Below, in pieces: positions 1,436 through 16,549 of a stretch of DNA of 24,000 nt (the first letter of the stretch is position 1; every line of letters begins with the position of its first letter). Origin of the DNA: an uncultured Actinomycetes bacterium (GTDB lineage: Bacteria > Actinomycetota > Acidimicrobiia > IMCC26256 > BP-133); the NCBI GenBank assembly GCA_963789165.1, contig CAWBJP010000001.1, positions 272,096 through 296,095 of the forward strand, read 5' to 3'. Under the pieces are notes generated by a model. That model was not told where the DNA came from. It was given only the letters and a program-made list of their open reading frames with translations, and ran no database searches. A program made the translations under genes and the position numbers.

Positions 1436-3191
1436 TGTCAAGTCCCGGTACCCGGGCGACAGTTGAGTTCCGGTACCTGCACGACAGGTAGTTTCGGGAG
1501 CTAGGCGACAGTGCGCGGTTTACGGGGCCGGCCTTTCGGGGTGGCGAAGGCGCCGTGTTCCTTGGACCGGTCGTGACGGATGGGATGGACCCGCACGACC
1601 TTGCCGTCGACGGCCGAGCTAGACCGAGCCGGCCACGATGGCGACCTCGACGGGAGCGGCCCCGGTAGGCCCGTTCCCGCCCGGTACGGCGTCCCGGCGA
1701 AGCTCATGTTCCCGCTGCCGTCGGCCTGGCGGATGACCGGCGATCCGACCGTGGCGACCCGCCGGCGACGAACCGCCGGGCCCTGGGGTGACCGCTGTGG
1801 TGCCGGGGTGCCGGGTGGGCGGCGCTGGGCGTGGGAGGCAACCAGCACGCCCCGGTGGGTGATCTCGACGAGGCCGTTGCGGCAGATGGCCTCGACCAGC
1901 TCGCCGGCGAAGAAGCGGCCCACGTGGTAGCGGAACCCGCCCAGGCCGATCCGGCCGGCCTGGTCGACCCAGCGGGTCACACCCCGCAACCCGGCCACGG
2001 CCACCACCGCATCACCAGCACAGCGAACGCGCTGATCCTCGCCGGCTCGACCACGACCAGGTCGGGGCGGGCGAGCGCGAACCGCTCGATGGGCGGGACC
2101 ATGCCGATGCCCTGATGAGGCCGCTTGAGTGTTGTAGTGCTCGACCCACTCGTCGACCGCCGCCTGGGCTTCCTCGATCGTGGCGAACACCCGGCCGGTC
2201 GAGGCACTCGGCCTTGAGCGTCTTGTGGAACCGCTCGACCTTCCCCGTCGTGGTCGGTGACCGGGGCGCGGTCAGCAGATGGCGGATCCCGTTCTCCCGA
2301 CAGATCCGGTCGAAGAGCACCTCCCCGTTCCCCGGCCCGTACTTCCCGGTGAACACCTTCCCGTTGTCAGTCAACACCCCCTCGGGGACCCCGTGGCGGC
2401 GCATGGCCTCGGCGAAGGCGTCGCACACCGGCCGGGCCGTGGCCCGCCGCACCACCTTGGCGCACACACAGAACCGCGAGTTGTCATCCAGGCCGGTCAC
2501 CACCGACGCCTGCGACCCGTCCACCAGGTGCACCCCGCCGGTGATGTCCATCTGCCACAACTCCATCGGCCGGGACCGCTCCCACCGCTTGTAATCCGAC
2601 CGGCGCCGCCTCCTGCGCCTGCGGGTCGATCAGCCCGTGGCGGACCAGACGCCCGATAGATCGACGACCGCCCCGGCAGCCGGTCGACCCCTTCCCGGCC
2701 CAGCTCATAGAGGATCGTCTGCGGCCCCCACGACCCGGATGCTCCCGCCGCAACGAGACCACCCGCGCCTCCACCGCCGGCGCGCATCTGATGCGGACAC
2801 GTCGCCGGCTTCGAGCGAACGGTCCGCCAGGCCCCATGATCCCGTCCCGGGCATAGTCCCGCAGCCAGCCGTGCACCGTCTGGCGCACCACCCCGAACCG
2901 GCGCGCCACCTCCACCACCGACAACCCACCCTCGAGCACCTCAAGCACGGCCCGATGACGCTGATCCACCAGTCCCAACTCCACGAGCACGGCCATGCCT
3001 CCTCGGTCTCCGGGCGCGACAACCCAGAGCCAAAGGAGCGCCAACAACAGCCGAATCAACAACCCCCGGAAGTGGTCAGGCCGACCGTCGCCTAGCAACC
3101 GGACGACTGTCGCCCAGGTACCGGAACCGCGTCCACGAAGTGTCGCCCACCTACCGGAACCACGATGTCCAGCATGAACCGGGCTCGCACA
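1436..3191 (-). mobile_element. IS481-family insertion sequence (about 1.76 kb) with a decayed transposase
   Basis: The termini begin TGTCAAGTCCCGGT (left) and TGTGCGAGCCCGGT (reverse complement of the right end). Subterminal motifs CCGGTAC[CT][CT]GGGCGACAGT are repeated in inverted orientation at both ends (about 1446-1464 and 3116-3135, plus a second degenerate copy at each end). The element encloses a DDE/rve transposase and is flanked by a 14-bp direct repeat. Confidence 0.75.
1501..2996 (-). pseudogene. IS481-family transposase (HTH + rve/DDE integrase core) with multiple frame disruptions
   Basis: Recognisable segments are scattered over all three minus-strand frames. They include MAVLVELGLVDQRHRAVLEVLEGGLSVVEVARRFGVVRQTVHGWL (ATG at 2996), PAVEARVVSLRREHPG, WGPQTILYELGREGV, RPMELWQMDITGG...LTDNGKVFTG...TTGKVERFHKTLK, EWVEHYNTQ/RPHQGIGMVPPIERF, and TRWVDQAGRIGLGGFRYHVG...HPIRHDRSKEHGAF up to the stop at 1501. 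At least six frame switches are needed to join them. Confidence 0.8.
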
Positions 3192-3205
3192 AACCAACGG
3201 AGAAA
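3192..3205. repeat. Right copy of the 14-bp direct repeat AACCAACGGAGAAA (candidate TSD)
   Basis: Identical to 1422-1435 and abuts the right IS terminus. It lies 84 nt from the 3' end of tRNA-Glu. Confidence 0.55.
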
Positions 3206-3288
3206 CTTCTATGGATGTGTGATGGATGGCAAGCCGAAGGGCCACCTCCGAACCCATCGGAAATGGCCCCCCACCTGCACTTTTCTCG

Positions 3289-3361
3289 TAGCCCGTACGG
3301 GATTCGAACCCGTGTCTCCACCTTGAGAGGGTGGTGTCCTAGGCCCCTAGACGAACGGGCC
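3289..3361 (-). tRNA. tRNA-Glu (anticodon CUC)
   Basis: The reverse complement folds by hand as GGCCCGT TC GTCT AGGGGCCTA GGAC A CCACC CTCTCAA GGTGG AGAC ACGGG TTCGAAT CCCGT ACGGGCT A. This gives a 7-bp acceptor stem (G1:U72 wobble), D and T arms, a TTCGAAT T-loop and anticodon loop CT-CTC-AA. CCA is not encoded. Confidence 0.9.
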
Positions 3362-3470
3362 AAGCGGCGTCCGGTGCCCCGGACCGCCACGATGATAGGG
3401 CATCGTTCTCGACACCCGACCATCTTCGGCGCCGCCGGCCTGACCCTGCTCAGGGGGACGAACCGACCGG

Positions 3471-3689
3471 TCAGCCGGCCAGAAGGAGGGGGGCGACGAA
3501 GGCGGTCCGGTTGAATCCGACCTCGGCCTCCCAGACCAGTTCGTCGATCTCCTCGTCGGCCAGCGTCTGGCTCAGCAGCCCGTGCACCCGGACCGCCGCC
3601 CGAGCCCAGTTCGTCGGGGCCAGGAGGGCGTCTTCCCACTCCAGGGTCGTCGACATGGTCGTCGGCGGGTTCTCCATCGTGAGGGTCAT
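3471..3689 (-). CDS. Hypothetical small protein (72 aa)
   Basis: ATG at 3689 is preceded by AGGAGG with a 5-nt spacer (cccAGGAGGccgacATG). Third codon positions are almost all G/C, consistent with the coding bias of the window. I recognise no family. Confidence 0.55.
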   Translation of the reverse strand: MTLTMENPPTTMSTTLEWEDALLAPTNWARAAVRVHGLLSQTLADEEIDELVWEAEVGFNRTAFVAPLLLAG

Positions 3690-3773
3690 GTCGGCCTCCT
3701 GGGCTGCGTACGGATGGGCGTGTCGATCATCCCGGTGCGGGCCGGGGTCGTCCTTCGCTCGGGCGACCGAGGC

Positions 3774-3793
3774 TGTGTGCCGGCGGCGACACA
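3774..3793. promoter_or_regulatory. 20-bp palindromic motif TGTGTG-CCGGCGGC-GACACA; candidate operator in a divergent promoter region
   Basis: It lies midway between divergent starts, 85 nt from 3689 (minus) and 87 nt from 3880 (plus). It shares 16 of 20 positions, including both A/T-containing arms, with the site at 11401-11420. I found no other TGTGT-N10-ACACA when scanning the window by eye. Confidence 0.4.
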
Positions 3794-3879
3794 GGAGGCG
3801 TCGCCCTCAACGACCTGGGGTCGGGTCAGGACGACGATGGACTCGACCGCAGCACACCACCGTCGCCGAGGAGGCCGGA

Positions 3880-4035
3880 ATGACCGTCACCCTGGAGTTT
3901 CCGCCCAGCACCACCGTCACCGACGACCGGCCGGAGTCCGAAGTCGCCGAAGAGCAGGCTGTCCCGTCGAAGCCGTTCGAGGAGTTCGCGGCTCTCCTGG
4001 CCCAGTCCTACATGTGGACGCCCCTCTTCGCCTGA
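3880..4035 (+). CDS. Small ORF (51 aa) with an acidic N-terminal half and an aromatic C-terminus ...AQSYMWTPLFA
   Basis: ATG at 3880 is preceded by GAGGAGG (gccGAGGAGGccggaATG). About 90% of third positions are G/C. The stop lies 35 nt upstream of the peroxidase ATG at 4071, so the two are likely co-transcribed. Confidence 0.55.
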   Translation: MTVTLEFPPSTTVTDDRPESEVAEEQAVPSKPFEEFAALLAQSYMWTPLFA

Positions 4036-4070
4036 GCCACGGAGAGATCGTCGAGAGGACGAGTAAGCCC

Positions 4071-5124
4071 ATGGGGCGACGGTCGAGAGCACCGGACGAA
4101 CACGGAAATGTCTTCTCCAGGTGGCTCATCGGTGTCCCCCTGGCGCTGGCCGCGCTGGCCGCCCTGGCGTTCGGCTGCACCCGACACGTCTCGGGCGCCG
4201 AGCCGCTCACCGCCGGGCGGATCCTCGGCCCCGTCCCGGTCCCGGCGGGGAACCCGCAGACCCCGGACAAGATCGCACTGGGCAAGCTCCTGTTCTTCGA
4301 CAAGCGGCTGTCCGCCGACAACGCCACGGCCTGCGCCAACTGTCACGACCCGGCCAAGGGCTGGAGCGACGGTCTGCCCCGCAGCGTCAGCCCCGCCGGC
4401 GAGATGGAACGCAACAGCATCAGCCTGTTCAACATCGCCTACGAGGACTTTCCGGCCTGGGACGGATTCGCCGCCAGCCTGGAAGAACACAATGGCGCCG
4501 CGCTCACCTTCGACTTCGGGGCCGGTGCGCAGGACGTTCCCGAACTGATCCGGAGCTGACGGACGACCCCGGATACCGGGAGCGCTTCGGGAAGGCCTTC
4601 GCTGGTGAGATCAGCTTCACCAGCGTCATCCGAGCCCTGGCCGCCTTCGAGCGCAGCGTGCTCACCTTCGGCTCCGACTTCGACCAATTCGCGATGGCGA
4701 CCGGTCCCGGCTGACGGCCGAGCAGCAGGACGGTCTGGCCCTGTTCATGGGGAGGGCGGCCTGTTCGTCATGCCACATCCCGCCGCTGTTCACCGACAAC
4801 CGCTTCCACGCCCTCGGCGTCCCCCAGGCCGGGCCCCTGGCCGAGGACCCGGGGCGGTTCGCCGTCACCGGCGACGAGGGGGACCGGGGCGCTTTCCGCA
4901 CCCCGACGCTGCGCAACCTGACCCTGACCGCGCCCTACATGCACGACGGCGTCTTCACCACCCTCGACGAGGTGGTCGCCTTCTACGACGCCGGTGGCGG
5001 TGCGGTGCCGGGCCGGAGTGGCCCCGAGATCGGGCCCCTCCACCTCAGCGCCGGAGAGCGCAAGGCACTGGTGGCGTACCTGGAGTCACTCACCGACACG
5101 AGATCTCAGACCGTCGGACCCTGA
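4071..5124 (+). pseudogene. Di-haem cytochrome c peroxidase / MauG-family protein, two frameshifts as assembled (about 4545-4556 and 4696-4698)
   Basis: There are two CxxCH haem motifs (CANCH and CSSCH) plus family-typical strings: LGKLLFFDKRLSADN, DPGYRERFGKAF, FRTPTLRNLTLTAPYMHDG, LDEVVAFYD. The three pieces lie in frames 3, 2 and 1. Restoring one G in ATGGCG (about 4696) gives ...FAMGDRSRLTAEQQDGLALFMG.... The N-terminus carries a hydrophobic signal/anchor (WLIGVPLALAALAALAFGC). Confidence 0.8.
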
Positions 5125-7049: not shown

Positions 7050-10149
<3,100 letters not shown>

Positions 10150-10163
<14 letters not shown>

Positions 10164-11124
10164 GCCACCGCACCCGCCGCTCCACCTCGCGCCGCACCGC
10201 CCGGTCGGCCACCGCGGCCGCCGCCCGCCGGCGCACCTCCCCGTCGTCCTCGGCCGGCACCTCCCGGGACAGCACCCGGGTCACCCGCCAGCCCTCGGCC
10301 ATCCGGGCCGGTCCGAGCGCGTCGCCGGCCCGCGCCCCGATGAGGGCCGGGCGCAACTCGGGTTCGAAGTCACACAGATGGGCCCGCCGCCGCCCCGGGG
10401 CAGCCCGGGCCGGGGTGTCCCCGGAGAAGAGTACGGCGGAGAAGTCCCCGTCCTCCCGCAGGCACAGCAACGCCTCGCGGGCGGTCGCCTCCTCGGGAAA
10501 CGACACCCACTCCAGGTCGAGGTCGATCCAGTCGAGGCGGCGGGCCACCACCTCCTCGGCGATGACCCGATCCGTGGCCGCCGCTCGCCGAAAGGCGACG
10601 TAGGCGGCTTCGAGCACCTCCCAACGGTCGCCGGCCCCCGGCGGGCGGGTGGGGACATGACCGGGCTCCGCACCGGCGGCTTCGGTCCGGGCGGCGGCGG
10701 CCGCGGCCCGATCAGCCACGGCCGCGGCGAAGGTCGAGTAGAGGCCGGAGCAGATGCCGGTGGCCCACAGCCGCGACGCCTCCTCCGCGTCCGCCGTCGG
10801 CCCCGCCCGCAGTTCGGGGTGGCGCTCCCGGGCCACGGTCCGACGGATGTGGTCCATCCAGGCGGAGACGGAGAGACGGCGCCCGGCCAGCCAGCGCTCT
10901 GTGTCCTCGGCTGAGATCAGGCGGTGCCGCCGGCGGAAGGCAGCCGCCGCCGCCCGCACCTCCTCGTCGCGCTGTCCCTCCGGCGCGGGGACGAGCGCCA
11001 GCGCCGCGACGCCCTCACGGACCTCACGAACATGGTCGCTCCACGCCTCCTGGCGGCGGCCCCAGTCGAGCACGTCCCCCCAGGTGTAGTCGGTGGAGGC
11101 GACGCGGAAGACGACGTCGTCCAA
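10150..11124 (-). CDS. Hypothetical 324-aa cytoplasmic protein with a degenerate parvulin (PpiC)-like C-terminal region; candidate peptide maturation/chaperone partner
   Basis: High-GC3 ORF with no signal peptide. The C-terminal stretch EEATAREALLCLREDGDFSAVLFSGDT...CDFEPELRPALIGARAGDALGPARMAEGWRVTRVLSRE follows the parvulin pattern (G-D-F..., then 'xG(D/E)xxGPxxxxxGWxxxxV') by eye. It is translationally coupled to the PCAT. The start is uncertain: TTG at 11124 lies 15 nt from AGGAG, and a GTG 17 codons downstream is an alternative. Confidence 0.65.
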
Positions 11125-11142
11125 GCGCCGGGTGACCCGCTC

Positions 11143-11295
11143 CTAGCCCGATCCGCCCTTGCCGCCCTGGCCCGTGGGGTCGGCGTCGTCGGCGGCGGCG
11201 CCCCCCTTGATGTTCTCGGCGTCGGACGGCTCCGGCTCGAGGTCCTCGAGCTCGTCGACGTCGTCGGTCGGCCCGGCGGCGCGGATGTCGTTCAT
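11143..11295 (-). CDS. 50-aa precursor micro-peptide with an acidic double-glycine-type leader: MNDIRAAGPTDDVDELEDLEPEPSDAENIKGG | AAADDADPTGQGGKGGSG
   Basis: ATG at 11295 is preceded by GCGAGGGG with a 5-nt spacer. In the C-terminal 18 codons, 17 of 18 third positions are G/C, which fixes the frame across the G6 run. ...SDAENIKGG resembles the LSxxELxxIxGG leader end cleaved by C39 peptidases. It is the first gene of the operon that ends with a catalytically intact C39-ABC exporter. Confidence 0.65.
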   Translation of the reverse strand: MNDIRAAGPTDDVDELEDLEPEPSDAENIKGGAAADDADPTGQGGKGGSG

Positions 11296-11400
11296 GTCGG
11301 CCCCTCGCTCTCTCCTATGCACCCCGCCGGCAGCGCCGTTGGGGATGCCCGCATGGTATGGCCAGGATGCGACAGCGTCGATGCTCCCTTGAGCGCTGCA

Positions 11401-11424
11401 TGTGTCACGGTGCCGACACACCGT
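11401..11424. promoter_or_regulatory. Overlapping palindromes TGTGTC-ACGGTGCC-GACACA (11401-11420) and CACGGTG-N5-CACCGTG (11406-11424); candidate operator
   Basis: The site lies 106 nt upstream of the peptide ATG (minus strand) and 41 nt upstream of the ATG at 11461 that I reconstruct as the native cyclase start (plus strand). It shares the TGTGTS-N8-GACACA architecture with 3774-3793. Confidence 0.4.
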
Positions 11425-11483
11425 GGCCGGGCCGGCCGCACGGGCTACCGTCACCAGACGATGACCTTCAATCGAGCCGCAAG

Positions 11484-11503
11484 CCCACGGGTTCAGCCGT
11501 GGG
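11484..11503 (+). other. IS200/IS605 left-end subterminal hairpin
   Basis: The hairpin is CCCACGG-GTTCAG-CCGTGGG, extended by outer arms CGAGCC (11473-11478) / GGCTCG (11508-11513) around an internal loop. Confidence 0.65.
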
Positions 11504-11566
11504 TCAAGGCTCGGTCGGGGCTAGGCCCCGGAGGTAGTTGTCGTACCCGCGGTCCAGAATGGGCCT

Positions 11567-11956
11567 GTGGAGTATCGGTCGATGAACAAGACGGTGTACT
11601 CGACGAAGTACCACCTGATCTGGTGCCCGAAGTACCGCCGCCGCGTACTGGCCGGCAGGGTCGAGGAGCGCCTGAAGGAGATCCTCGCCGAGGTTGCCGG
11701 TGAGGTCGGGGCGGAGATCATCGAGGTGGAAGTGATGCCCGACCATGTGCACCTGCTCGTTGAGGTGCCCCCGGCGGTGGCGCGGTCCCGGTTCGTGCAG
11801 TTGGAGGGACGGTCGGCCCGGCTGCTGCGCCAGGAGTTCCCCCCGCTGCGCCGCCTGGGGTGTTTGTGGAGCCCGTCGTGGTTCGTCTCCACCGTCGGTG
11901 GAGCGCCGCTCGAGGTGGTCCGCCGCTACGTCGAGAACCAGAAGCGGGTGGCGTAG
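11567..11956 (+). CDS. tnpA: IS200/IS605-family Y1 (HUH) transposase TnpA
   Basis: YSTKYHLIWCPKYRRRVL, HUH motif MPDHVHLLV, and the catalytic Tyr context RRYVENQ. Length is about 125-129 aa. The real start may be the ATG at 11582 (MNKTVY...). Confidence 0.9.
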   Translation: MEYRSMNKTVYSTKYHLIWCPKYRRRVLAGRVEERLKEILAEVAGEVGAEIIEVEVMPDHVHLLVEVPPAVARSRFVQLEGRSARLLRQEFPPLRRLGCLWSPSWFVSTVGGAPLEVVRRYVENQKRVA

Positions 11957-11959
11957 CTC

Positions 11960-13144
11960 GTGGCCTTCCGTTACCGCCTTTACCCCACCCCGGCCCAGGC
12001 GGGGGGTTGCGAGCGGCACTGCGGCGACGCCCGCTACGTATGGAACCTGGCCCTGGAGCAGGCGAACTACTACCGGCCCGGGCATCCCACGCCCGGGAGC
12101 ACCGAACGGTTCCGCCAGCTCGCCGAGGCCCGGAAGGGCTCCTGGCTCGGCGAGGGGTCGTCGTCGGTGCAACAGCAGGCCCTGCGCGACTTCGACCAGG
12201 CGCTGCGGAACTGGTGGGCCGGCACGCATCGCCGGCCCAGGTGGCGCAAACAGGGAATCGACGAGGGATTCTGCCTCCGCGACGTCAAGGTGCAGAAGAT
12301 CTCAGGCAAGTGGGCCGAGGTCTACGTACCCAAGGTCGGCCCGGTGCGCTTTCGACTCACCCGCCCCCTCGGCGCGCACGGCATGGCTCGGGTCACCAGG
12401 GACCGGGCCCGGCGCTGGCACATCTCGTTCTCCGCCCCTCAGCCGCCCCTCGAACGCCCCGGCACTGGTTTGGCGGTCGGCGTCGATGTCGGCGTGGCCC
12501 ACACCGTCACCACCAGCGCCGGGAAGCATCTCGACATCCCCGGCCTCCGACCCGGCGAGCAGGCCCGCCTGCTCCGCCTGGAACGCAAGAAGGCCCGGCA
12601 GCGCAAGGGCAGCAACCGGCGTGCGAGAACCAAGCACGCCATCGCCGCCCTCCACGCCCGGGCCGCCGACCGCCGCAAGGACTGGGCCGAGAAGACCTCC
12701 ACCGGCCTCGTCGCCGACTTCGACCTGGTCGTCTTCGAGGCGCTCAGGGTCAAAGACATGCTCCGCTCCGCCCACGGCACCGCCGAGAACCCGGGCCGCA
12801 ACGTCGCCGCCAAAGCCGGGCTCAACCGGAAGATCGCCGCATCGGCCTGGGGGTTCCTCATCCGGCGCACCCAGGAGAAAGCCGCCACGACCGACGACTG
12901 CCAGGTGGTGCTCGTCGACCCTCGGCACACGTCGCAGCGCTGTTCGGCCTGCGACCACGTGGCCCCGGGCAACCGGCCGACCCAGGCAACCTTCCGGTGC
13001 GTGGCCTGCGGCCACGCCGAACACGCCGACATCAACGCGGCCAAGAACATCCTGGCGGCAGGGCTTGCCGCCACTGCGCGTGGAGGGAGGCCCGAAATCG
13101 GGGCGCCCAGCGAAGCGCGAACCACCGGACGGGAGGCGGCATGA
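11960..13144 (+). CDS. tnpB: TnpB (OrfB_IS605 RuvC-like, RNA-guided nuclease family) with a zinc ribbon
   Basis: GTG start. The N-terminus FRYRLYPTPAQ is typical of TnpB. RuvC triad candidates are present: GVDVGV (D), VVFEAL (E), HADINAAKNI (D). The zinc ribbon reads CSACDH...FRCVACGH. There are no frame disruptions. Confidence 0.9.
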   Translation: MAFRYRLYPTPAQAGGCERHCGDARYVWNLALEQANYYRPGHPTPGSTERFRQLAEARKGSWLGEGSSSVQQQALRDFDQALRNWWAGTHRRPRWRKQGIDEGFCLRDVKVQKISGKWAEVYVPKVGPVRFRLTRPLGAHGMARVTRDRARRWHISFSAPQPPLERPGTGLAVGVDVGVAHTVTTSAGKHLDIPGLRPGEQARLLRLERKKARQRKGSNRRARTKHAIAALHARAADRRKDWAEKTSTGLVADFDLVVFEALRVKDMLRSAHGTAENPGRNVAAKAGLNRKIAASAWGFLIRRTQEKAATTDDCQVVLVDPRHTSQRCSACDHVAPGNRPTQATFRCVACGHAEHADINAAKNILAAGLAATARGGRPEIGAPSEARTTGREAA

Positions 13145-16100
13145 ACACGCCCCCCAAAGGAATCCCACGGCTCCAGCCGAGGGAGGAGGTCAAGGAGTCC
13201 GGACTCCATGCCCGGGAAGGGGAGCTCCCCACGGGAGCGGTCACGTTCCTCTTCACCGACATCGAAGGTTCGACCCGCATGGCCGAGCATCTCGGGTCCA
13301 GCTTCGGCGAGCTGCTGGACGCCCACCACCGGTTGCTGGGCGAGGCGGTCGTCTCCCACCGGGGCGTGGTCGTCAACACGCAGGGTGACGCCTTCTTCGC
13401 CGTGTTCCTCGCCGCCGCCGACGCCCTCGCCGCGGCCGTGGCCGCCCAGCGGGCCCTGGCCGCCGAAGCGTGGACGGGCGGCGTGGAGCTGCGGGTGCGC
13501 ATGGGCATGCACAGCGGCGAGGCGGTCCTCGGCGGCGCCGACTACGTGGGCCTGGCCGTCCACCGGGCCGCCCGGGTGGCCGGCCTGGCCTACGGCGGTC
13601 AGGTCCTGGTGTCGGAGGCGACCCGGCGCCGGGCCGATCCGGAGCTGCCCGTCGACGTCAGCTTCACCGATCTCGGTCTGCACCGGCTCAAGGACCTGAC
13701 CGAGCCCGAACGGATCCATCAGCTCGTCCATCCCGACCTGTCCCGCGACTTCCCCGCGCTCCGATCCCTCGACGCCTTCCGCCACAACCTTCCCGTCGCC
13801 GCCACCAGCTTCGTGGGCCGGGAGTCGGAGGTGGCCGCCCTGGCCAAGCACCTGGCCGACGCCCGCTTGGTCACGCTGCTCGGACCGGGCGGTTCGGGCA
13901 AGACCCGCCTCGCTCTCCAAGTGGCGGCGGAACGGGTGGACCAGCACACCGACGGGGTGTGGCTGGCGGAGCTGGCGCCCTGGGGCGATCCGGCGCTCGT
14001 GCCCGCCGCCGTGGCCGCCGTGCTCGCGGCCCGGGAGGAGCCGGGCAAGAGCCTGGTGGAAACTCTGGAGAGCTGGGTGGCGGACCGGGACGTGCTCCTC
14101 GTGCTGGACAACTGCGAGCACGTGGTGGCCGCCGCCGCCGACCTGGCCGGCCGCCTCCTGCGGGCCGGACCGGGAGTGCGGGTACTGGCCACCAGCCGGG
14201 AGGCGCTCGGCCTGGCCGCCGAGCAGGTGGTGACTGTGCCCCCGCTGCGCCTGCCCGATCCGGCGGCGGGGACGTCACCTTCGCTCGAGGCCCTCCTCGA
14301 CTCCGAGGCCGTCCGGCTCTTCGTGGAACGGGCCCGTTCGGCCCGGCCGGACCTGGAGCTGGGCCCCGAACACGCCGCCGCCGTCATCCGCATCTGCACC
14401 CGGCTCGACGGGATCCCCCTGGCCCTGGAGCTGGCCGCCCGCCGGGTCCGGGCGCTGTCCCTCTCCGAACTGGCCGACCGTCTCGACCAGCGTCTCCGCT
14501 TCCTGACCGGCGGGGGCCGGGAGACCGAGGCCCGCCACCAGACCCTGCGCGCCGCCATCGACTGGAGCCACGACCTGCTGGAGGGCGACGAACGCACCCT
14601 CTTCCGGCGCCTGGGGGTGTTCGCCGGCGGCTTCGACCTGGCCGCGGCCGAGACGGTGTGCGCCGGGCCCTACGACACCCTCGACCTGATCGCGGCGCTG
14701 GTCGACAAGTCGCTCGTGGTGGCGTCGGAGGCGGGCGGAGCGACCCGTTACCGGATGCTGGAGACCATCCGGGAGTACGCCCTGGAACGCCTGTCCGAGG
14801 CCCGGGAGGACGACGCCACCCGCCACGCCCACCTGGCCTGGGCGCTGCACGTGGTGGAGCGCGGCGCACCACCCCGCTCCCGGGGCCTGCCCCGGGAATG
14901 GGTGGATCACCTCGATGTGGCGCACGACAACCTGCGGGTGGCCCTCGACCATGCCCAGGAGCACGACCCGGAGGCGGGCCTGCGGCTGGCCGCCGCCCTA
15001 CGGCCCTTCTGGTGGGTGCGGGGCCACTGGCACGAAGGTCGGGTCCGGCTGGAGGCGGCCCTGGCCCGGACCCCGGGCGCGGCCCCCGCCCTCCGGGCCA
15101 AAGGCCTGGTGGGGGCGGCCGACCTGGCCGAGTGGCAGGGAGACCTGGGCCCGGCCACGGCCCTGGCCGAGGAGGCCCGCCAGATCTTCCGCCGGGCGGG
15201 CGACCGGCCCGGCGAAGCGGAGTGCTGCTGGAAGCTGGGCAACGTGGCCTTGATGCGGGGGCGGACGGCCGACGCCCGGGGCCTGCTGGAGGAGGGCGTG
15301 GCCATCTCCCGGGACCTCCCGGCTCGGGAGCATCTGGCGGAGTTGCTCAACGCTCTCGGTTGCCTGTTCCTGGACGAGGGCGACTTCGGCGCCGCCCGCC
15401 ACTGCTGGGAGGAGACCCTGGCCACCGACCCGGCCCTCTCCGACGCCTTCGTCGGCGGCCCCGGCTCCCACGCCCGGTTCAATTTGGCCATGGTCCTCTG
15501 CTTCGAGGGGGCCTACCCCGCGGCCCGGGAACTGGCCCAGGAGAGCCTGGAGCGGGGCCGGGTGCTGGGCGACGCCAGCCTGGCCGCCGGAGCCCGGGGC
15601 CTGCTGGGGGAGATCGCTCTCTACGAAGGCGACTTCGCCGCCAGCCGGTCGCTCCTGGAGGAGAGCCTGGCGCTCCAGCGGCAGCTGGGCGAGGCGACGA
15701 TGGTGGCGGGCACCACGCTGCGCCTCGGCCGCCTGGCGCTGGCCCGCGGCGACCTGGCGGGGGCGCGGACGCTCCTGGAGGACGGGCTGCGCCAGCAGCG
15801 GGAGCTGGACGGCAAGTGGGGTACCGCCTCCGCTCTGCGGGGCCTGGGCGTCGTCGCCCGCCAGGAGCAGCGCTACGGGGAGGCCCGGTCGGCCCTGGAA
15901 GAGAGCCTGGCCCTCTTCCGCGAGATGGGCAGCCGCGACGACGTGATGACCAACCTGGGTGAGCTCGGGGAGCTGGCCCTGGCCGAAGGCGACCTGACCT
16001 CGGCCCGGGCCCTGCTGGAGGACAGCCTGGATCAGAGCCGGGCCCTGGGCGTGCAGCGGGAGACGGCGTGCCGGCTGGAGGCCCTGGGTCGCCTGGCCCT

Positions 16101-16431
16101 GGCCGAGGGTGACCTCGACGGCGCGGCGCGACGGGCTGGCCGACGCCCTGGCCCGGGCCGTCGAGCTCGGAGCCCGGCCCGTCGCCGCGGACGCGGCCGA
16201 AGCCCTGGCCGCGGCGGTCGCCGCCGGCGACGACCTCCAGCGGGCCGCCCGCCTGCTCGGGTCCGCCTCCGGCCTGCGCGAATCCATGGGCGCCGCCACT
16301 CCTGCCGTCGGTACGCGTCGGGCACGACACCACCTGGGCCGCGGTGCAGAAGGGCGCTCGGCCCCGAGGAAGCGGGGCGGGCCGTGGCCGACGGGAGAGG
16401 CTTGGCCCTGGAGGAGCTCGCCGCGCCATGA
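13141..16431 (+). CDS. Class III adenylate/guanylate cyclase domain + STAND P-loop NTPase (NB-ARC-like) + TPR repeats; C-terminal 300 nt needs three +1 frame corrections
   Basis: The cyclase domain has LPTGAVTFLFTDIEGST...NTQGDAFFAVF...GLAVHRAARV...LGLHRLKDL. The P-loop is LLGPGGSGKTRLA and Walker B is VLLVLDNCEH. It also has RLDGIPLALELAA and a long TPR-like array (G(D/E)xxxAxxLLEESLAL...). The ATG at 13141 overlaps the tnpB stop (ATGA). The ORF-track version starting at 11860 is an out-of-frame run-through of tnpB. The tail is read best as frame 1 to about 16125, frame 2 to about 16292, frame 3 to about 16352, then frame 1 to the stop at 16431. Confidence 0.85.
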   Translation: MNTPPKGIPRLQPREEVKESGLHAREGELPTGAVTFLFTDIEGSTRMAEHLGSSFGELLDAHHRLLGEAVVSHRGVVVNTQGDAFFAVFLAAADALAAAVAAQRALAAEAWTGGVELRVRMGMHSGEAVLGGADYVGLAVHRAARVAGLAYGGQVLVSEATRRRADPELPVDVSFTDLGLHRLKDLTEPERIHQLVHPDLSRDFPALRSLDAFRHNLPVAATSFVGRESEVAALAKHLADARLVTLLGPGGSGKTRLALQVAAERVDQHTDGVWLAELAPWGDPALVPAAVAAVLAAREEPGKSLVETLESWVADRDVLLVLDNCEHVVAAAADLAGRLLRAGPGVRVLATSREALGLAAEQVVTVPPLRLPDPAAGTSPSLEALLDSEAVRLFVERARSARPDLELGPEHAAAVIRICTRLDGIPLALELAARRVRALSLSELADRLDQRLRFLTGGGRETEARHQTLRAAIDWSHDLLEGDERTLFRRLGVFAGGFDLAAAETVCAGPYDTLDLIAALVDKSLVVASEAGGATRYRMLETIREYALERLSEAREDDATRHAHLAWALHVVERGAPPRSRGLPREWVDHLDVAHDNLRVALDHAQEHDPEAGLRLAAALRPFWWVRGHWHEGRVRLEAALARTPGAAPALRAKGLVGAADLAEWQGDLGPATALAEEARQIFRRAGDRPGEAECCWKLGNVALMRGRTADARGLLEEGVAISRDLPAREHLAELLNALGCLFLDEGDFGAARHCWEETLATDPALSDAFVGGPGSHARFNLAMVLCFEGAYPAARELAQESLERGRVLGDASLAAGARGLLGEIALYEGDFAASRSLLEESLALQRQLGEATMVAGTTLRLGRLALARGDLAGARTLLEDGLRQQRELDGKWGTASALRGLGVVARQEQRYGEARSALEESLALFREMGSRDDVMTNLGELGELALAEGDLTSARALLEDSLDQSRALGVQRETACRLEALGRLALAEGDLDGAARRAGRRPGPGRRARSPARRRGRGRSPGRGGRRRRRPPAGRPPARVRLRPARIHGRRHSCRRYASGTTPPGPRCRRALGPEEAGRAVADGRGLALEELAAP
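13164..13183 (+). other. IS200/IS605 right-end subterminal hairpin
   Basis: The hairpin CCCACGG-CTCCAG-CCGAGGG has one mismatch and is closely related to the LE hairpin sequence. It lies within the first 15 codons of the cyclase ORF as now assembled. Confidence 0.6.
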
Positions 16432-16461: not shown

Positions 16462-16477
16462 CACCATCCTGATGGAG

Positions 16478-16549
16478 CTCGGGGGCAGGGATTCGAACCC
16501 CGAATGGCAGGGCCAGAACCTGCTGTGATGCCGATTTCACCACCCCCGA
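16478..16549 (-). tRNA. tRNA-Gln (anticodon CUG)
   Basis: The reverse complement folds as TCGGGGG TG GTGA AATCGGCA TCAC A GCAGG TTCTGGC CCTGC CATT CGGGG TTCGAAT CCCTG CCCCCGA G (72 nt). It has the U1:A72 pair typical of bacterial tRNA-Gln and anticodon loop TT-CTG-GC. Confidence 0.9.

Follow-up and report, generated by a model that had tools for sequence, protein, structure and literature searches.

The locus

A stretch of 24,000 nucleotides (nt) from an uncultured actinobacterium (contig CAWBJP010000001.1, positions 272,096 to 296,095; here called the window, about 70% G+C) carries an insertion sequence (IS) of the IS200/IS605 family that very probably inserted at the start codon of a gene for an adenylate/guanylate cyclase. 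The nearest relatives of the window's genes are found in metagenome-assembled genomes of the Acidimicrobiia. All positions are those of the window, on the + strand unless stated otherwise. The element (11466..13193, 1728 bp) is of the IS605 group, with co-directional tnpA and tnpB genes. The tnpA gene (11582..11956, with an alternative GTG start at 11567) encodes a Y1 (HUH) transposase, which matches the Pfam model Y1_Tnp over profile positions 1-121 of 121 (E = 3.1e-39) and the NCBIfam model transpos_IS200 with 135.6 bits (cutoff 55), and contains the motifs HVH and RRYVEN. The tnpB gene (11960..13144, GTG start) encodes a putative RNA-guided RuvC-type nuclease of 394 aa that matches the Pfam models HTH_OrfB_IS605, OrfB_IS605 and Cas12f1-like_TNB and the NCBIfam model guided_TnpB (224 bits, cutoff 100).

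Residues 2-372 of the window TnpB match the ISDra2 TnpB structures 8bf8 and 8exa (E = 4e-24). The best structural match is 9yyg_A, an AI-designed nuclease, which aligns over the same residues; GVDVG lines up with GVDLG, FEAL with VEDL and HADINAA with DRDENAA. By comparison with the ISDra2 protein, GVDVG, FEAL and HADINAA presumably hold the catalytic residues. The zinc-finger cysteines lie in CSAC and CVAC. The window TnpB is recorded once in the protein database, on one contig, and exact-protein look-ups found neither an identical TnpB (with V or M as the first residue) nor an identical TnpA elsewhere.

The cyclase open reading frame (ORF) in its present form (13141..16431, 1096 aa) contains the Pfam domain Guanylate_cyc (adenylate/guanylate cyclase), a STAND NTPase domain and TPR repeats. 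Its start lies inside the element, where the ATG shares bases with the tnpB stop codon (ATGA). In front of the element, the ATG at 11461 opens an orphan ORF of 80 codons (11461..11703), which continues into left-end sequence as far as the start of tnpA, with which it overlaps; a Pfam search with it gave no match. The window reads ATGACCTTCAA at 11461-11471 and ...GAGGTCAA/GGAGTCCGGACTCCAT around 13193, the slash marking the junction. An earlier, sequence-only reading of the window had proposed that an IS200/IS605 element is inserted at the very beginning of the cyclase gene, and this is borne out by the Pfam and NCBIfam matches and by the orthologs described below. The sequence features on which it had drawn (11461-11471, the right junction, the ATGA overlap, the hairpin in the N-terminal codons and two palindromes) are all present.

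As an insertion sequence the element is an ordinary new member of the IS200/IS605 family: a Y1 TnpA, a tnpB gene, hairpins at both ends, insertion at a fixed tetranucleotide and IS608-like cleavage-site geometry were all found, together with a predicted transposon-adjacent motif (TAM) like that of ISAba30. With TnpA, TnpB and both end hairpins in place it looks intact and is, to judge from its sequence, apparently functional.

The right end

Loci of TnpB relatives were taken from species-representative genomes, and metagenome contigs were scanned for the pattern GGAATCCC-N14-GGGAGGAGGTCAA. The related copies, some 180 among those listed, share a right end of the form ...GGAAT-hairpin-GGAGGAnGTCAA/. 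About 65 genome copies end in ...GGAAT-hairpin-GGAGGA(T/C/G)GTCAA, where the similarity stops, and at least 120 metagenome contigs match the scanned pattern, all of those listed diverging directly past GTCAA. The window matches the pattern once, at 13159-13193, where none is expected by chance. The right end of the element at 13193, as also placed by the sequence-only reading, is therefore firm. The right hairpin CCCACGG-CTCCAG-CCGAGGG (13164-13183) has one A-A mismatch, and the last base of the right cleavage site, TCAA (13190-13193), lies 10 nt past the foot of this hairpin on the 3' side.

Among the contigs listed (L083-L202) the 35-nt motif is nearly unchanged over a G+C range of 37% to 74%, and these contigs come from soil, marine, brine and bioreactor samples. 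Such conservation is unusually strong for the end of a mobile element.

The left boundary and the target motif TGAC

In the left end (11466..11520) the linker, CTTCAA, is of a variable kind; the outer stem is formed by TCGAGCC...GGCTCG, and the hairpin at 11484-11503 reads CCCACGG-GTTCAG-CCGTGGG. The sequence GCAAG stands directly 5' of this hairpin, at the position of the guide in IS608, and the left ends of L006 and L205 are homologous to that of the window. The outer limit of the left end was located by comparison with uninterrupted genes. Two cyclase orthologs, P0001 (82% identity) and P0002 (80%), start with MTESGLHARPGELPTG and MTELQLTPRPGELP. Their loci, L001 and L002, read ATGACGGAG... 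within an upstream context shared with the window, and both continue ...TACCGTCAnnnnnnTGATGACG GAG..., that is ATGACG GAG. After the shared ATGAC, L001 goes on with ATGACGGAGTCCGGACTCCA, in which TCC GGA CTC CA follows without an indel or a TTCAAG. The window reads ATGAC, then the element (CTTCAATCGAG ... GGTCAA), then GGAGTCCGGACTCCA, and the native cyclase sequence is picked up again in the present ORF at ESGLHAREGELPTG. Deletion of 11466-13193 (1728 nt) yields ATGAC/GGAGTCCGGACTCCA, identical to L001 over 20 nt. That the ATG at 11461 is the native start codon, as had been proposed, agrees with its conserved upstream context, which is the same as that of the start codons of both orthologs.

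A second comparison is provided by L003, a copy whose TnpB is 79% identical to that of the window and which sits in a gene for an enoyl-CoA hydratase (ECH). Its flanks read ggcgcgagactcggcccATGAC (IS) CGAGTCGGCGCA or, more fully, ggcgcgagactcggcccATGAC, the element (CGGGACCTTTGCTGGC...GTCAA) and CGAGTCGGCGCAAGTGGTG. The metagenome contig L203 carries an uninterrupted ECH gene, whose product is 92% identical to that of L003, with a near-identical empty site that reads ggcgcgagactcggcccATGACCGAGTCTGCGCC (in a longer stretch, ggcgcgagactcggcccATGACCGAGTCTGCGCCAGTGGTG); ECH orthologs begin MTESA.... This pair of occupied and empty sites puts the cut directly after TGAC and shows neither a duplication of the target nor a scar in the empty site, nothing being gained or lost. 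It follows that the bases separating TGAC from the outer stem, although poorly conserved, are element sequence. These 3-13 nt vary widely in sequence and length among left ends that are alike in other respects; examples from the window, L003, L004, L006, L205, L206 and L210 are CTTCAA, TGAAA, AGGAA, CGGGACCTT, TTGAATCTT and CAAAGTCTTTGTT.

In all nine subfamily copies with a readable left flank, TGAC is found 17-24 nt 5' of the left hairpin. It is preceded by A in the window, L003 and L007 (ATGAC/C), in L206 (ATGAC/T) and in L211 (ATGAC/G), and by another base in L205 (CTGAC/A), L210 (CTGAC/C), L004 (TTGAC/T) and L006 (GTGAC/T). In more distant relatives (about 55% identity) the hairpin is preceded, at a distance of about 19 nt, by TCAC or TCAT. 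IS608 has its left cleavage site 19 nt 5' of the left hairpin and its right site, TCAA, 10 nt 3' of the right hairpin (PMC3201880); in the window, 18 nt separate TGAC (11462-11465) from the foot of the left hairpin. TGAC is also the published TAM of a TnpB, that of ISAba30 (PMC10787141).

On the strength of the orthologs, the L003/L203 pair, the nine left flanks, the IS608 geometry and the ISAba30 TAM, the left boundary of the element is placed at 11465/11466, within codon 2 (AC/G). The bases left of it (11461..11465) comprise the native ATG and the AC of codon 2, and TGAC is the insertion target (left cleavage site) and the predicted TAM; the native protein began MTESGLH. Taken jointly, we consider these boundaries, this target and this native start highly probable.

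The sequence-only reading had put the left boundary 6 nt further on: an element of 11472-13193 inserted after TTCAA in codon 4, with TTCAA as TAM, a native N-terminus MTFKESGLH and an empty allele ...ATGACCTTCAAGGAGTCC.... Its deletion of 1722 nt is in frame, as had been calculated, TCAA then stands at both junctions, and TTCAA resembles the T-rich TAMs of other TnpBs (table in PMC10787141). In addition, the first 3-6 nt past TGAC are poorly conserved, and similarity among left ends seems to begin near 11470. Yet this deletion leaves six bases, the codons for F and K, that are found in neither ortholog, L001 and L002 both lacking TTCAAG, and the equivalent bases of L003 (CGGGACCTT) are missing from the empty site in L203 and hence belong to the element. 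No TTCAA-like motif is common to the nine left flanks, all of which have TGAC, and TTCAA would lie 12 nt from the hairpin foot, as opposed to 19 nt in IS608. We therefore regard this version as highly improbable. Other copies of the IS, with which the proposed ends were to be compared, thus agree with it on the right end at 13193 and disagree on the left end at 11472.

Two further candidates were set aside. TCACC (11451-11455), considered as a target by analogy with the TCAC-type relatives, is host sequence common to L001 and L002. L004 was considered as an independent test of the boundary; its left flank is not tnpB, so a junction within an interrupted tnpB could not be checked there.

The corrected empty site of the window is ATGACGGAGTCC, and with a predicted TAM of TGAC and a native protein starting MTESGLH all downstream predictions change; insertion at TGAC predicts an empty allele ...CAGACGATGACGGAGTCCGGACTCCATGCC....

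A candidate substitute start codon in the right end

At 13131..13143 the element carries a Shine-Dalgarno-like GGGAGG, a spacer of 4 nt and the ATG whose last bases are part of the tnpB stop codon. This ATG lies 53 nt before the right end, that is 17 codons plus 2 nt (3n+2). Since the ATGAC that it replaces is 5 nt long, also 3n+2, the right-end ORF takes the place of the native start in phase. In the cyclase frame no further ATG, GTG or TTG is present between 13141 and the catalytic FTDIEGST motif, which leaves the ATG at 13141 as the sole plausible start that preserves the cyclase domain; the IS-derived N-terminus described in the sequence-only reading is upheld in this respect. Residues 1-17 and two-thirds of codon 18 (MNTPPKGIPRLQPREEVK) of the present ORF are encoded by the element, with the right-end hairpin sitting within the new N-terminal codons. 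The predicted product is MNTPPKGIPRLQPREEVK-ESGLH... in place of the native MT followed by ESGLH..., and its predicted N-terminal peptide is MNTPPKGIPRLQPREEVKESGLH (MNTPPKGIPR...). An ATGA overlap of stop and start codons is a classic arrangement for translational coupling. Whether the fused cyclase is expressed from this ATG is, on the sequence, about an even call.

The arrangement described is also found in L003, L004, L005, L104, L209 and L210, and in L206 and L118 as GTGA. Most of the more distant relatives (L007-L082) end in GGAGGATGTCAA, in which an ATG stands 7 nt (3n+1) before the terminus; this type accounts for 52 of 176 distinct right ends, and several of them have long open frames that run on into the flank. 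The ATG in GGAGGATGTCAA was rejected as a general outward start: a 3n+1 distance does not fit insertions at TGAC or TCAC starts, and GGAGG directly abuts the ATG.

Insertions at other start codons

About six other independent copies, described here for the first time, are fused in frame to the N-termini of unrelated genes, and translation of these fusions is predicted likewise. The host genes encode the ECH (L003; full length and 92% identical to the uninterrupted ortholog), a family-4 glycosyltransferase (L005), a short-chain dehydrogenase (L206, with GTGA for ATGA and ATGAC as left flank), a luciferase-like monooxygenase (L209, in which the left end is truncated), a flavin oxidoreductase (L097) and RlmN (L170). 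In L003, L097, L170, L206 and L209 the Pfam models start 4-16 residues from the junction, and the gene callers of the source databases start the host genes of L206 and L209 at the codon that overlaps the tnpB stop. Among the window TnpB and those of ten genome-derived copies (a comparison that left out L097 and L170) mutual identity within the subfamily is 72-92%, from which it appears that the copies compared are old, separate lineages.

Other copies occupy different kinds of sites. L006 and L211 sit on TGA-C stop codons, L210 lies 16 nt upstream of a start codon, L004 lies within another element, and L007, judged by eye, apparently lies a few codons before a stop codon. L209 (2400-3737) is a tnpB-only copy that has lost the left hairpin, and the upstream gene call, of the ROK family, enters element sequence; this copy looks immobilised, wedged between two host genes. 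L003 (2786-4237) and L205 (2023-3735) occupy the same start-codon position of homologous ECH genes and have TnpBs that are 81% identical, with the site empty in the closer ortholog L203, which points either to an ancient insertion with precise excision or to repeated hits on the same site.

Where subfamily copies have the 53-nt right-end ORF, over half of them are fusions to N-termini. The window contains 148 TGAC sites in 24 kb, of which start-codon sites are a small minority, so that the excess of start-codon insertions is large, with the number of genes a rough estimate. This excess most likely reflects survivorship: TGAC sites at start codons (where the gene is rescued), at stop codons and between genes would be the least harmful ones to occupy. 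A real preference for ATGAC as a target is possible. Two shortcuts in this reasoning were rejected. The in-frame fusions do not count as independent one-in-three coincidences, since any insertion at an ATGAC start necessarily brings a 3n+2 ATG into phase; what is informative is the enrichment at start codons, together with the phase that the right-end ATG has. Nor do TGAC sites on the sense strand always fall in the phase xTG ACx (7 vs 6 in two long ORFs).

The same boundaries would also be found if a recent, as yet undecayed insertion had simply knocked out the cyclase gene, the right-end ATG being an accident of the guide RNA (omega-RNA) sequence and the clustering at start codons a preference of target or accessibility. 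GGAGG and the ATG do lie within a predicted RNA stem-loop, the phase is lost in some relatives (d = 52 in L086, d = 51 in L205), and A precedes TGAC in five of the nine left flanks, so that ATGAC could be a preferred target. The insertion in the window is undated, and its TnpB is on record only once. However, in about seven long-diverged copies the element is followed in frame by a host ORF that is intact and of full length, among them the well-conserved ECH of L003, and few of the 148 TGAC sites of the window can lie on start codons, in contrast with the share of N-terminal fusions given above. The phase-broken L205 precedes an ECH gene with at least three frameshifts, while its own tnpA and tnpB are intact. 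We consider a plain knockout unlikely.

In this respect L205 deserves a closer description. At 2026-4700 its right-end hairpin lacks 2 nt, which puts the right-end ATG out of phase; the element stands at the expected start codon of the ECH gene, and its left flank is CTGAC, not ATGAC. This suggests that L205 is a natural control, although it is a single case in an assembly that may be based on long reads.

Whether the substitute start codon, which might be called a start-codon prosthesis, is an adaptation of this TGAC-targeting IS605 subfamily or a tolerated accident is a separate question; we raise adaptation only tentatively, as the less probable of the two. Limited literature searches found no description of a start-codon-replacing IS605 subfamily with a phase-matched start in its right end and recurrent in-frame fusions at ATGAC starts.

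The native upstream region and the neighbouring genes

The region upstream of the native start is conserved at 11401-11460 in the window, at 780-844 in L001 and at 100-147 in L002. In all three, the divergent gene start is followed by GCGTCGATGC, the palindrome TGTGTC-N8-GACACA, an invariant TACCGTCA and ATGAC. The palindrome (11401..11420 in the window, at the same place in L001 and L002) is a candidate operator, with the native ATG lying 41 nt downstream of it, as the sequence-only reading had noted. TACCGT (11446..11451), 9 nt before the native ATG, was recognised by eye as a -10-like hexamer of the TAnnnT type; a sigma-70 consensus scan, which does not model actinobacterial promoters, gave no match there and none inside the element. 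No Shine-Dalgarno sequence is found between TACCGT and the ATG, which suggests that the native cyclase gene was perhaps leaderless and operator-controlled.

It had been claimed that the insertion cuts off the cyclase gene from the native promoter and from the operator. The native ATG and the region upstream of it are indeed separated from the ORF by the element, but for transcription this is an overstatement. Element and gene point in the same direction, and a scan of the + strand from 11200 to 13400 found no terminator-like site, so that transcription from the native promoter may still reach the cyclase ORF. The cyclase could then be expressed by read-through, its regulation retained, a tnpB promoter of little importance and its translation still starting at 13141. 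The conserved TACCGT and palindrome directly upstream of the insertion, and the lack of a sigma-70-like promoter in the element as far as the scan applies, agree with this; the end hairpins and omega-RNA processing, in contrast, could terminate or cut such transcripts. We hold read-through with retained regulation to be a serious candidate, a little short of an even chance.

Divergent from the cyclase gene lies an operon (7050-11295, - strand) that encodes a 50-aa acidic peptide, a 324-aa protein and a 1037-aa protein. The peptide (MNDIRAAGPTDDVDELEDLEPEPSDAENIKGG/AAADD...) has a double-glycine motif, ...ENIKGG, that is kept in L001. A family search with the 324-aa protein gave no match, and the 1037-aa protein combines two cNMP-binding domains with Peptidase_C39 and an ABC exporter. 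The operon looks like a peptide-export module that would be gated by a cyclic nucleotide and paired with the cyclase. The window also contains, on the - strand, genes for tRNA-Glu(CTC) (3288-3361) and tRNA-Gln(CTG) (16477-16549), the latter on the strand opposite to the cyclase gene and 46 nt past its stop codon.

The predicted guide RNA

In ISDra2 and in Geobacillus elements the omega-RNA overlaps the 3' end of tnpB (PMC10055086). The corresponding region of the window (13044..13193), which comprises the right end and overlaps the tnpB 3' end, is the predicted omega-RNA scaffold. The last 150 nt of 33 copies have a common fold, with compensatory changes in 13 of 20 consensus pairs, those of the right-end hairpin included, and the right end of the window folded as a single sequence has a z-score of -2.25. 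This conserved structure fits an omega-RNA; the right-end hairpin would also serve TnpA as a DNA site. Searches of Rfam gave no relevant family, either of omega-RNAs or of introns, and for introns this held both with the gathering threshold and with E <= 1.

By the TnpB model (PMC10055086) the predicted guide is 13194..13213, the start at 13194 being retained from the sequence-only reading, and it equals the target in the empty allele. The TAM is predicted from the insertion sites to be TGAC. The first 14 nt of the guide (13194-13207), GGAGTCCGGACTCC, form a perfect palindrome that corresponds to native codons 3-7. Since GGAGTCCGGACTCC is also present in the uninterrupted L001 (850-863), the palindrome is a feature of the host gene and not of the IS; L002 has a shorter one, GGAGCTCC (about 153-160).

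Proposed mechanism and its implications

The explanation that we consider likely as a whole combines insertion at the TGAC of the cyclase start, an in-frame substitute ATG, retention by means of the omega-RNA, and survivorship. An IS605-group element would have inserted 3' of the TGAC made by the start codon and two bases of codon 2 (A-TGAC/G). The native ATG at 11461 and the conserved upstream region would have been left behind, where they now open only the 80-codon junk ORF. GGAGG, the 4-nt spacer and the ATG of the right end would replace ATGAC in frame, and the cyclase would most likely be translated by reinitiation or coupling after tnpB, from transcripts that may originate within the element or from the native promoter. 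The RNA that spans the right end and the 3' end of tnpB would act as omega-RNA, with its guide from 13194 onward and TGAC as TAM. TnpB would then cut the excised allele, TGAC/GGAGTCCGGACTCC... (TGAC/GGAGTCCGGACTCCATGCCC), which would favour retention of the element.

Several points weigh against this explanation. The boundary in the window rests on orthologs of 80-82% identity and on analogy with sister copies, because no conspecific empty allele was found: a metagenome scan for ATGAC-N(0-7)-GGAGTCCGGACTCCAYGCCCGG gave 0 matches for the empty site of either version, TTCAA or TGAC. When the bases CAAG, 5' of the left hairpin, are set against TGAC by the presumed pairing scheme of IS608, C:G and A:A face each other at positions 4 and 3, as they do in IS608, but positions 1-2 form no canonical pairs, and four canonical pairs are not reached. 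The palindromic guide, GGAGUCCGGACUCC, may fold on itself, and in the predicted RNA fold the 14-nt palindrome self-pairs. The stem-loop that holds GGAGG and the ATG belongs to the predicted omega-RNA, so that both may exist for the sake of RNA structure and be occluded; in the predicted structure the ribosome-binding site GGGAGGCG can pair with CGCCCCCC, which leaves ATGA in the loop. If the omega-RNA is processed, the cyclase message would be separated from transcripts that start upstream. Finally, in the broader family of right ends, counted after removal of the GGATGTCAA motif, an ATG at 3n+2 is only mildly enriched (37, vs 27 and 14 for the other phases).

Elements of the IS200/IS605 type with TnpB are usually viewed as gene disruptors, or as intergenic passengers that are held in place by RNA-guided homing. 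If the arrangement described here is functional, it offers a simple and testable means by which a transposon could burden its host less, and it hints at where long-lived TnpB elements and tolerated natural N-terminal tags of about 17 residues may be sought. If it is moreover an adaptation, the element could colonise first codons, possibly borrow promoters, spare the gene and persist for long. Translation of the host gene would be coupled to that of tnpB, its expression would compete with omega-RNA processing, and the element would represent a translational counterpart of the strategy of IStrons. As for the cyclase, a fusion with transposon sequence may now be the sole form in which it is translated, with an output that could hinge on tnpB translation and omega-RNA processing.

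Comparison with known systems

IS608 of Helicobacter pylori shares with the window element the co-directional Y1 tnpA and tnpB genes, the subterminal imperfect hairpins and insertion 3' of a tetranucleotide without duplication. The right end of the window element, GAAT-hairpin-...GTCAA, presumably resembles that of IS608 as well. The left sites lie at 19 nt in IS608 and at 18 nt in the window, and the right site TCAA at 10 nt in both (PMC3201880). The target of IS608 is TTAC, whereas that of the window element is TGAC. Unlike IS608, the window element resides in a high-GC actinobacterium of the Acidimicrobiia type, and its tnpB stop codon overlaps an outward-reading ATG that is in phase with ATGAC starts.

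The window TnpB is homologous over its whole length to that of the ISDra2 TnpB-omega-RNA homing system (Karvelis 2021; Meers 2023, PMC10055086), and the alignment with 9yyg_A indicates that the positions of the catalytic motifs are kept. A conserved structured region over the right end and the 3' part of tnpB, a predicted guide equal to the right flank and a TAM equal to the target motif are likewise ISDra2-like. The TAM of ISDra2 is TTGAT, whereas TGAC is predicted for the window system. The TnpB of ISAba30 uses the TAM TGAC, and that of ISTfu1, from an actinobacterium, TGAT (table 2 in PMC10787141); the predicted TAM or target tetranucleotide of the window system is identical to the former and nearly identical to the latter. 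As far as literature searches show, no start-codon insertions have been reported for ISAba30 or ISTfu1.

IStrons are IS605- or IS607-type elements with a group I intron (10.1101/2023.11.20.567912). Like the window element, they are TnpB elements that lessen the damage of sitting in a gene, and the conflict described for them between the omega-RNA and an intact host message (10.1101/2023.11.20.567912) is of a kind that would be expected in the window as well. Unlike IStrons, the window element has no intron according to Rfam, and the damage would be limited in translation, by a substitute start codon, instead of by splicing.

A further parallel is found in insertion sequences such as ISAba1 and IS6110, which activate neighbouring genes via outward promoters. 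In these elements, as in that of the window, an end of the element gives expression signals to an adjacent host gene. The signal in the window is not a promoter, however, but a ribosome-binding site and a start codon, which would make a protein fusion.

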